This document shows positions 10,904 through 12,473 of a stretch of DNA of 15,905 nt, in pieces; position 1 is the stretch's first letter; each line of letters begins with the position of its first letter. Both the position numbers and the translations under genes were made by a program. This DNA comes from Chlamydiales bacterium. GTDB lineage: Bacteria; Chlamydiota; Chlamydiia; Chlamydiales; JBDQID01. Under the pieces are notes generated by a model. That model was given only the letters and a program-made list of their open reading frames with translations, did not search any database and was not told the DNA's origin. The stretch is taken from contig JBLFWS010000068.1 in NCBI GenBank assembly GCA_047611865.1, forward strand, positions 1 through 15,905, written 5' to 3'.

Positions 10904-10964
10904 TTTTTTTGAATACTTTTAAATTGAAATCGATTCTTTGACAAGTAAAAAAGGAGTGAACCCG

Positions 10965-11432
10965 ATGAGTACCCGACTAGTTGCCATACGTCATGCCAAA
11001 CCTTTAAGCGAAGGTTATGCAGAAGATGCCCTTCGCCCATTATCAGAAGAAGGAAAAAGCATTCAATTACGTGCAACAAAACAGCTGAAAGATGAGGGGA
11101 TTGTTCCTACATTAATTTTGAGCTCACCACTACTGCGAGCCCAACAAACGGCTCAGGTGATCACTGACGTTTATAATCTTCCCTTTGAAGAAGAAAATGC
11201 TTTGGGATATGATTTTAACCAAGAGCTTCTTTTAAAAAGGATTCCATCACCTGAAGAAAACCAAACACTATTTCTTGTGGGACATGCTCCGACCTTAGGG
11301 CATTTTATCAACGCCTTGGTAGGGGAAAATGTTCTTCCTTACGGATTATCAAAAAGCTGTGCTGCTGTAGTGGATTTTAAAAATGAGGTTGGATTGGGGC
11401 AGGCTGAATTTGTGTCCTATTATCAGCCTTGA
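10965..11432 (+). CDS. sixA: Phosphohistidine phosphatase SixA family
   Basis: RHAK, D..RPLS.EG, SSPL.RA.QTA, LVGH.P; AGGAG RBS before ATG 10965. Confidence 0.9.
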   Translation: MSTRLVAIRHAKPLSEGYAEDALRPLSEEGKSIQLRATKQLKDEGIVPTLILSSPLLRAQQTAQVITDVYNLPFEEENALGYDFNQELLLKRIPSPEENQTLFLVGHAPTLGHFINALVGENVLPYGLSKSCAAVVDFKNEVGLGQAEFVSYYQP

Positions 11433-11490
11433 TTGTTGATCTTGTAGGAGATGCCTCTCTCCCGCTTGCAGATTAGAGAGGGGCCAAAGC

Positions 11491-11903
11491 TGGGGTGACA
11501 CAGATGAGGCTAAAATCCCATGATCTCCCCCTCAAGTCTTCCGGTTAAAACCCGTCCCATTTTTGTGGTGATTTTGTGGAATAGGCAACGCCTTCATGAG
11601 TCCGGCAGGACGACCCGATTAAAGCCTCGGGTGACTTGAGCTTGCGAGGGAACCCGTGGAGGAGAAAATAAAAAATAGAGCCTGAGGAACGAAGGCGATT
11701 GAAGCCTCTTACACCTTTCAGTCGCCCTCGCGGGCTCTGATTTTCTGTTCTCACTACCACGGATTCCTTCGCTCCGCTTAAGTCATCCGAGGCTTTGATC
11801 GGGGACCCTACGGGCTTTCGAAGTTGAGCGAAATTGGTACCACAACAAGGATGTAAAAAAAAAAATCTAACTAGCCGTATATGGTAGCATCTGTGTCACC
11901 CCA
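11491..11903. mobile_element. Non-autonomous MITE, 413 bp
   Basis: Perfect 16-bp TIR TGGGGTGACACAGATG (11491-11506) / CATCTGTGTCACCCCA (11888-11903); 9-bp direct repeat GGCCAAAGC at 11482-11490 and 11904-11912 (alternative parse: 17-bp TIR with 7-bp TSD); no transposase. Confidence 0.92.
11563..11845 (+). other. Long nested inverted repeat predicted to fold as a rod-like RNA or ssDNA inside the MITE
   Basis: Nested stems 11563-70/11838-45, 11598-604/11811-17, 11614-59/11757-803, 11677-84/11731-38, 11694-703/11717-26. Confidence 0.85.
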
Positions 11904-12002
11904 GGCCAAAGCAGTGCTTAATGTATTAATGGGCTTGACTTTCACGTATAGTCTCGTAATACTTCATCCTATTTTTACTTGATTCCTAAGGTAAGTATTA
12001 TA

Positions 12003-12473
12003 ATGCCAGATACAGATATGGAAAATTCACTTAAAGATGACTTTCAGGCTTGTCGGAAGTACGCTCTCTATTTGTTGAACTTGCGAGTCTATACCGCCCA
12101 TAACTTTAAGAAAAAGTTACTTGAAAAGGAGTATTCTCTAGAGTCGAGTGAGAAAGTAGTTCGGGAATGTATCGAAAGGGGATACTTAAACGATCGTTTG
12201 TGGTCAGAGAGCTTTGTTCGGGTTCAGAAAGGGAGGAAATACGGGCAAGCGATAATCGCACAAAAGCTTAAGATAAAGGGCATTGAAGAGGGCCTTATAG
12301 CTGAGGTTCTTGAGAAATATCGTGACACGGATGGGGATCAAGAAAACATAAGAACTTTACTAGAGACACGTTATCGCAACAGAAATCTTGAAGACCCTCG
12401 GGAAAAGCAGAAAGTCATAGCTTCTCTTCTTCGGAGAGGATTTGATTACACCTCCATCCTTAAAAGCCTGTAA
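12003..12473 (+). CDS. recX: Regulatory protein RecX
   Basis: ALYLL..R, GYLND..WSESFV, KYG...I.QKLK.KGI, KVIASLLRRGF. Start uncertain (TTG 11979, ATG 12003 or ATG 12018). Confidence 0.9.
   Translation: MPDTDMENSLKDDFQACRKYALYLLNLRVYTAHNFKKKLLEKEYSLESSEKVVRECIERGYLNDRLWSESFVRVQKGRKYGQAIIAQKLKIKGIEEGLIAEVLEKYRDTDGDQENIRTLLETRYRNRNLEDPREKQKVIASLLRRGFDYTSILKSL

Follow-up and report, generated by a model that had tools for sequence, protein, structure and literature searches.

A MITE of a Chlamydiales bacterium whose palindromic core probably derives from a Y1 transposon

The element between a SixA-like gene and recX

The window, the whole stretch of DNA that was analysed (15,905 nucleotides; contig JBLFWS010000068.1 of a Chlamydiales bacterium), carries a 415-bp element (11490-11904) between a gene for a SixA-like histidine phosphatase and recX. 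The element has a perfect 17-bp TIR and is bordered by a target duplication of 7 to 9 bp. The features of the locus are as follows.

10938..11432, + strand: upstream gene, histidine phosphatase (SixA-like; Pfam His_Phos_1, 31.1 bits), context only
11483..11489, no strand: left target-site duplication GCCAAAG, read from the sequence; 9 bp, GGCCAAAGC, at 11482-11490 if the element starts at T 11491
11490..11506, + strand: left TIR of the outer family-A MITE, CTGGGGTGACACAGATG, 17/17 complementary to 11888-11904
11507..11598, + strand: family-A-specific left subterminal segment, also present beside other cores in other family-A-type elements
11599..11702, - strand: left arm, one ~100-nt Y1-element terminal unit, reversed (nhmmer unit profile, E 1.2e-19)
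11703..11717, + strand: spacer and apical loop, at the position held by a 150-aa Y1 transposase gene in autonomous relatives
11718..11816, + strand: right arm, the same ~100-nt unit as the left arm, forward (nhmmer, E 5.7e-25; alignments)
11817..11887, + strand: family-A-specific right subterminal segment with an A11 run, from the sequence
11888..11904, - strand: right TIR of the outer MITE, a perfect match to the left TIR
11905..11911, no strand: right target-site duplication GCCAAAG, read from the sequence
11979..12473, + strand: downstream gene, RecX (Pfam RecX_HTH1, RecX_HTH2 and RecX_HTH3), context only

When the plus strand of 11563-11845 was folded with RNA parameters (RNAfold), it formed one nested rod of 110 pairs with an energy of -149.3 kcal/mol. 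The shuffle mean was -88.4 kcal/mol (z = -10.9), and none of the 200 shuffles folded as well, so the rod-like fold that the original prediction had placed at 11563..11845 is real. Its description of the hairpin anatomy was also essentially right. The apical loop lies at the position given (11704-11716), but 11704/11716 is the closing pair, which leaves a loop of 11 nt (11705-11715) by RNAfold instead of 13. The longest stem, described as ~46 bp (11614-11659 with 11757-11803), has the extent claimed for it, and the helix that starts at 11614/11803 does reach 11659/11757; however, it does so with 43 pairs and past two interruptions, and the longest unbroken helix is 28 bp (11614-11641 with 11776-11803). 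The right arm (11718..11816) has the conserved blocks TCAGTCGCCCT..GGGCTC, CCACGGATTCC and GTCATCCGAGGCTTTGATC in addition to an outer small hairpin.

The element is one member of a dispersed family, family A. A search allowing two mismatches found 24 family-A TIR ends in the genome (3.59 Mb in 272 contigs, 41.5% G+C). There are four full copies with 96.6-100% identity, namely the copy in the window and those on contigs C31, C128 and C90 (96.6-98.3%). Derivatives have a 67-bp internal deletion (C55 and C208) or a larger deletion (C183), and truncated copies lie at contig ends. Direct repeats of 8 to 9 bp surround four of seven copies (the window copy on C68, C31, C90 and C208), and no target duplication was present at the other three (C55, C128 and C183). 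Thus, the composite as a whole has been amplified with target duplications. Just outside the TIR the sequences of different copies resemble each other (GGGnCAGnC-like), which suggests a target preference. The TIR at both ends (11490-11506 and 11888-11904) contains GGGGTGAC, which fits the GGGGWSAS published for the TIRs that flank TIRYTs, yet the element has target duplications of 8 to 9 bp.

Thirteen DNA sequencing runs, and no RNA run, were listed as containing the stretch or part of it. In metagenome contigs of three runs the depth of the core was ~9 to 11 times that of the flanking genes, and the left subterminal segment (11507..11598) reached ~27 times the flank in run X1. The contigs of four runs were repeat-collapsed pieces, none of which joined across an empty site. 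One metagenome joint, from 11618 to 11814, equals the deletion variant of the C183 type. Beside the solitary family-A ends on C167, C183, C144, C148 and C19, no transposase ORF was found in this assembly of 272 contigs broken by repeats.

Deletion derivatives of the hairpin itself were located at C55:12333-12668, C208:3570-3905, C183:5240-5474 and C35:23700-23961. Their junctions coincide with short direct repeats, either GATTRAAGCCTC or CCGA or the pair of GCCCT.CGGGCT hairpins within one arm, a pattern that would fit slippage across a long palindrome.

Relatives of the core and Y1 transposase genes

The central ~230 nt of the element recur, at 77 to 78% identity, inside family B, a MITE whose ends begin GTAAGCG and are unrelated to those of family A. 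All four complete copies of family B have 8-bp duplications, two of them with one mismatch. GTAAGCG ends and 8-bp duplications are features of IS66-type elements. None of the four genes for IS66-type transposases had the family-B TIR beside it, and this TIR was confined to MITE copies (9 ends). Other repeats contain half of the core, among them a 586-bp element that has 8-bp duplications and ~41 ends in this assembly. No dimer of the unit was found outside another repeat in the window's genome (G000), and there is therefore no direct sign of the dimer moving by itself there.

The 586-bp repeat (C21:16774-17359 and ~40 other ends) is noncoding, has imperfect TIRs beginning GGSATGGTTCA and carries, at a distance of 33 nt from one of its ends, a single diverged copy of the right-arm unit; no other sequence breaks the contigs of this assembly as often. 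The element at C253:1-454 is a family-A-type MITE in which both ends are of the left type and the palindromic core is another one. It pairs almost throughout (-286.1 and -301.6 kcal/mol on the two strands), and its core is a dispersed family itself (C4, C16, C9, C20, C97 and others). In some copies of this core the arms are 600 to 770 bp apart and enclose no recognisable gene.

BLAST searches of 41 related genomes found the core in three, the window's own included, and an exact-pattern scan of 185,579 species genomes returned 10 loci in two records, both titled chlamydiae. In genome G001 the core is again a palindromic dimer, located inside other long inverted repeats, and in G023 it occurs as single units of ~100 nt. 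The unit, as defined by an alignment of 20 sequences, has an inner small hairpin (GCCC-loop-GGGC) and the blocks CCACGGGTTCC and GTCAYCCGAGGCTTTGATC. Its outer small hairpin covaries between GCCC..GGGC and GTCC..GGAC, and its outer end reads AAGCCCGGAGG or GAGTCCGGAGG.

The unit has stayed 70 to 80% identical across three chlamydial genomes in which its flanks differ, and all of the located copies are intergenic. Both observations would be expected of a DNA repeat that the host has co-opted, as has been proposed for REP/BIME, for example as a protein-binding site or as a barrier between the flanking genes. However, no conserved genomic context was seen, the neighbours being different at each copy, and the core is carried by at least 3 of the 400 genomes of the order that were scored with their top two candidates each. 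Deletion derivatives are also common. Changing neighbours, patchy occurrence and deletion derivatives are features of a selfish repeat, and co-option by the host is accordingly a very unlikely explanation.

Genes for Y1 transposases (PF01797) are present in all three genomes (G000, G001 and G023). In G023, on contig C96, a Y1 gene coding for 150 aa is placed precisely between two units in inverted orientation. The stop codon directly adjoins one unit at its inner end, and the start codon lies ~38 nt from the other unit. The protein scored 80.2 bits with Pfam Y1_Tnp and 66.3 bits with NCBIfam transpos_IS200 (cut-off, 55), and it had no match to the RAYT model (NCBIfam REP_Tyr_transpos). When metagenomes were scanned with this protein, a single close relative was recovered, on contig L085, which is 78% identical and is likewise bracketed by inverted units (nhmmer, E 6e-18 and 1.5e-16); the unit of the window was absent from the other 79 kept loci of the scan. 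Both arms of the window's hairpin align over their full length with the four repeats that bracket these two genes (G023:C96, locus L035, and L085), with 38 invariant columns (alignment A1). Accordingly, the hairpin is an element of this type in which a spacer of ~15 nt takes the place of the gene. In other G023 copies, fragments of the Y1 gene have stayed attached to the unit.

All five proteins that were scored exceeded the transpos_IS200 cut-off of 55 (66 to 75 bits), and with REP_Tyr_transpos all five had either no match or 20.5 to 27.1 bits, where the cut-off is 80. The length of the enzymes is ~150 aa, and they share a WQ motif and the signature Y---Q--HH, which reads YIECQKEHH in the G023:C96 and L085 proteins and YIANQRKHH in a protein encoded on contig C24 of the window's genome. 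Y1_Tnp is the sole domain of the 150-aa protein, which does not have the RAYT-like class 2 layout with an HTH domain.

Bracketing by inverted repeats extends to more distant homologues. Among the 80 kept metagenome loci, 53 were flanked by 330 nt or more on each side, and these contained 45 distinct genes. These distant homologues (37 to 48% identity) were bracketed by inverted repeats in 38 of 45 cases, compared to 3 of 73 displaced controls. The repeats of the 38 had a median length of 46 nt (range, 14 to 132), and 21 were 40 nt or longer. The repeat-bracketed enzymes of the metagenome loci L086 to L164 bear the motif signature of a subclass that was published as having no associated repeats.

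It might be argued that the core is a fold-back MITE palindrome of the usual kind, unconnected with Y1 transposition, and that the Y1 genes are secondary IS200 insertions into a loop that already existed. IS200/IS605 elements use single-stranded DNA as their target, and the loop of a hairpin is a plausible place for them to insert. Furthermore, nearly all repeats of the window's genome are long palindromes whatever their ends, and the inverted repeat around the G023:C96 gene extends ~45 nt past the unit. However, the stop codon abutting one unit and the ~38 nt between the start codon and the other leave no room for separate IS200 ends in G023:C96. The gene on L085, with its 78% identical product, has the same layout, and there the inverted repeat extends no further than the unit. 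Most of the distant homologues have bracketing repeats, which are rare around the displaced controls, and the Y1 gene fragments that remain joined to the unit in G023 also speak against secondary insertion. It thus seems unlikely that the genes entered a pre-existing palindrome.

The window's assembly contains no close homologue of the G023 enzyme, the best tblastn match being 40% identical, and the unit profile found nothing beside the Y1 genes of this assembly. Since none of these genes is bracketed by the unit, the link to Y1 transposases rests on two autonomous elements in other organisms.

A different unit accompanies a Y1 gene in the window's genome itself. An intact gene for a 150-aa Y1 protein (C24:29461-29910, minus strand) is bracketed by a ~90-nt unit that is unrelated to that of the window (locus L076, C24:29136-30087). 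Gene-less inverted dimers of the C24 unit, with spacers of ~20 nt, are found at C18:10523-10717, C30:5906-6102 and C100:8217-8421. Judged by this arrangement, the C24 unit and its dimers look like a complete REPtron- or TIRtron-like system in a chlamydia. Elsewhere in the same genome, C112:6916-7975 encodes a 338-aa Y1 protein of the class 2 type (NHIH, YIHMNP) with an inverted repeat of ~33 bp (CATGGGTGCCAGGCCTGCAAG) and is a candidate TIRtron. At C51:17825-18452 a Y1 gene is split by a ~200-bp repeat that is found on many contigs; this gene is bracketed by ~88-nt inverted repeats of its own (17705-17792 and 18469-18556).

Covariation and strand asymmetry of the hairpin

A consensus rod of 66 pairs was derived from nine dimers of three lineages, and 94.7% of its cells were paired. 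When the partners were slid by 1 to 3 columns, this fraction fell to 31 to 54%. Fifteen of the 66 pairs had changed on both sides, and none of 500 shuffles reached the paired fraction or the covariation values. These results show that the two arms evolve in concert. The covariation among copies that the original prediction had looked for is thus present, yet it does not favour an RNA, because the arms also covary around the 450-bp gene of the autonomous elements.

The headline of that prediction was a transposase-mobilised structured RNA, with a wobble bias taken as evidence that selection acts on the fold of one strand, that of sixA and recX. The bias had been counted as 9 G-U against 2 A-C positions on the plus strand. 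The alignment of the two arms gave 17 transition mismatches, of which 11 read G-U and 6 read A-C on the plus strand (two-sided binomial P ~0.33); the minimum free energy structures contain 14 G-U pairs on the plus strand and 8 on the minus strand. The plus strand is indeed the more stable, yet the minus strand of 11563-11845 is itself far more stable than its own shuffles (-133.6 kcal/mol, z = -9.1). With DNA parameters the energies were -73.1 kcal/mol for the plus strand (z = -8.3) and -63.8 kcal/mol for the minus strand (z = -6.6), and the plus strand was thus better by 15.7 kcal/mol as RNA and by 9.3 kcal/mol as DNA.

The strand gap was compared with a null distribution in which each mismatch was mirrored between the arms at random, 400 times. 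The mean of this null was 0.1 to 0.5 kcal/mol and its standard deviation was 13 to 14 kcal/mol. The observed gaps, -15.7 kcal/mol for 11563-11845 (P = 0.25) and -14.1 kcal/mol for the core (P = 0.30; both two-sided), lie ~1 standard deviation from it. For annotation this carries a warning: because the standard deviation of the null is ~14 kcal/mol, the balance of G-U to A-C positions in one palindromic copy is poorly informative.

The mismatches of ten dimers from three lineages were also placed on the common unit profile. G-U-type events outnumbered A-C-type events in family A (11 versus 6) and family B (5 versus 3) and were the fewer in G001 (8 versus 11); the unique events pooled over the three lineages were 22 and 19, respectively. 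Single G001 copies had 5 or 6 events of the G-U type and 6 or 7 of the A-C type. The plus strand folded better in four of four copies of family A (by 12.6 to 15.7 kcal/mol) and in four of four copies of family B (by 5.7 to 15.6 kcal/mol), an advantage that we infer to be due to chance and shared ancestry. The gap between strands ranges from 0 to 17 kcal/mol, with either sign, in other palindromic repeats of the genome, such as the C253 element and four palindromes of the ~90-nt C24 unit (its three gene-less dimers and the pair on C24).

Orientation was scored with crude ORFs of at least 110 aa. Of 13 copies that were located, seven have co-directional ORFs on their two sides, with two copies in the sense direction (C68 and C16) and five in the antisense direction (C90, C55, C208, C183 and C109); the remaining six are at contig ends or between divergent ORFs. 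Hence, neither strand nor orientation gave a significant signal, and the proposal that the fold is selected on the sixA/recX strand is not supported.

A structured noncoding RNA borne by the MITE, that is, a selected rod of ~130 bp in a plus-strand transcript which might serve as an RNase III or stability element, would agree with the 15.7 kcal/mol advantage of the plus strand and with its recurrence in every copy of families A and B that was folded. It would also agree with the location of the window copy between two plus-strand genes, with compensatory changes that keep the rod, and with the lack of a known Rfam family to explain the hairpin. However, the energy gap is within chance, the bias vanishes when the lineages are pooled, with the G001 dimers leaning the other way, and other palindromes of the genome show gaps of up to 17 kcal/mol, with either sign. 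Antisense placements outnumber sense placements between co-directional genes, and the arms covary equally well where a gene separates them. Furthermore, the promoter and terminator scan detected no terminator at the hairpin and no convincing promoter tied to it; the run that follows the hairpin on the plus strand is an A-run, not a T-run. A selected RNA is therefore most unlikely.

No part of the window reached the gathering score of an Rfam family; snoR125 was the strongest match below it (19.4 bits versus 100), and a search at E values of up to 10 gave nothing meaningful in 11300-12100. The expectation that the hairpin would be new holds in part, in that no Rfam family matches it. ARAGORN found no tRNA and no tmRNA, and the only ORF of more than 60 aa in the element, a 71-aa ORF on the minus strand of the hairpin, had no Pfam match. 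A TnpB/IscB guide RNA, a retron msd and a group II intron fragment were also considered and were dropped, because there is no such gene nearby and no Rfam match, and the near-perfect symmetry of two arms is ill suited to any of them.

Interpretation and comparison with known systems

The most likely explanation is that 11490-11904 is a non-autonomous element of two layers, in which a gene-less derivative of a Y1 transposon, similar to a REPIN or TIRtron and acting as DNA, is carried by a MITE. The outer layer is the family-A MITE, which has a 17-bp TIR, produces target duplications of 8 to 9 bp on insertion and has been multiplied whole. The inner layer (~11599-11816) is an inverted dimer of the ~100-nt unit. 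The unit would represent the terminal inverted repeat of a small transposon that encodes a 150-aa Y1 transposase (HUH, IS200/IS605 family), and the ~15-nt spacer would stand in place of the lost gene, a build like that of a REPIN or of a dimer of TIRtron TIRs. The dimer may have reached its place in families A and B through insertion at the middle of these MITEs or through recombination among repeats.

The fold is rod-like because an inverted dimer is symmetric as DNA. Y1 transposases act on single-stranded DNA hairpins, and the fold, if it is relevant, would therefore matter as single-stranded DNA, in which form it could serve a cognate Y1 enzyme in trans. The original prediction had named a REPIN-like single-stranded DNA substrate captured within IS ends as an alternative to an RNA, and this alternative fits well, as the inverted repeats around Y1 (HUH) genes are homologues of the arms. 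Every dated movement was that of the composite, with target duplications; Y1 transposition, as in IS200/IS605, makes none. Since the assembly has no close cognate enzyme, the inner element probably now travels passively, moved by the transposase of the outer MITE.

An attractive reading, a mobile RNA under selection, is thus replaced by one at the level of DNA that can be tested. A poorly understood branch of the Y1/HUH enzymes (~150 aa, Y---Q--HH), for which PMC6006769 reports neither IS ends nor REPs, is tied to a candidate substrate, namely ~100-nt terminal units in inverted pairs and the dimers of them that lack a gene. Confirmation would bring another enzyme subclass, and environmental chlamydiae, under the REPIN/TIRtron principle, and it would mean that a single composite element can be common to two unrelated transposition systems. 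A more far-reaching proposal, which we consider possible but doubtful, is that the dimers form a family of large (~220 to 250 nt) REPIN-like single-stranded DNA elements, the first cognate repeats of a Y1 enzyme of the subclass 1.2 type, which would prefer the centres of palindromic MITEs and so give nested rods that can spread by either transposase.

Within the papers searched, no relevant work joined MITEs with chlamydiae or described such repeats in chlamydiae, and none later than 2018 discussed TIRYTs. The outer element resembles Correia/NEMIS, ERIC and RUP elements in having a TIR and a target duplication, in being intergenic and in forming a long hairpin if it is co-transcribed. It differs from them in that no sequence relation is known and the inner palindrome is traceable to a Y1 transposon. 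The RNA effects of Correia/NEMIS, ERIC and RUP elements are side effects of insertion.

IS200/IS605 elements have an enzyme of the same family, small GC-rich hairpins at each end and gene-less derivatives. Classical ends of this type are two different subterminal hairpins, whereas the ends described here are ~100-nt inverted copies of one unit, each with two small GC hairpins. IS200/IS605 elements insert without duplication beside a short fixed target; no target motif was seen at the junctions of the G023:C96 and L085 elements.

TnpA-Y1 subclass 1.2 is characterised, according to Quentin et al. (2018, PMC6006769), by proteins of ~148 aa with low copy numbers, no REPs and generally no IS200-type ends, mostly from Cyanobacteria and Bacteroidetes. 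The ~150-aa enzymes reported here share the WQ and Y---Q--HH motifs with this subclass, to which they are tentatively assigned by motif. Here, relatives are present in chlamydiae and their genes are bracketed by long inverted repeats, which sets them apart from the subclass as published.

In TIRtrons, according to Di Nocera et al. (2013, PMC3733652), the TIRs make up moderately abundant families that are single or dimeric, and a Y1 gene bracketed by TIRs that also form a dispersed family is the feature shared with the present elements. The 26 TIRYTs described (20 in subclass 2.1 and 6 in subclasses 2.2 and 2.5, according to PMC6006769) all belong to class 2, with Y---NP. The enzymes studied here have YIECQKEHH in a protein of 150 aa and are not of class 2, in which a C-terminal HTH domain is frequent. 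Furthermore, the published GGGGWSAS is missing from the unit, in which the nearest match is CGGGTGAC, and is present in the outer family-A TIR (GGGGTGAC).

In layout the elements match REPIN-RAYT systems as well as TIRtrons. The unit is ~100 nt in length with two small internal hairpins and gives dimers of ~220 to 250 nt, while a single REP is 20 to 40 nt. The unit is without the GTAG or CGTC head of REPs, the enzymes score 20 to 27 bits against the REP_Tyr_transpos cut-off of 80 and above the IS200 cut-off, and their signature is Y---Q--HH instead of the class 2 Y---NP. The copy number is low (~10), and in the window's genome the dimers lie inside other MITEs. As in the REPIN-RAYT systems of PMC3116915 and PMC3337134, however, a unit and its inverted copy make a hairpin, dimers that lack the gene are scattered in intergenic positions, and inverted units bracket a Y1/HUH gene; such bracketing was seen in G023:C96 and L085, not in the genome of the window.
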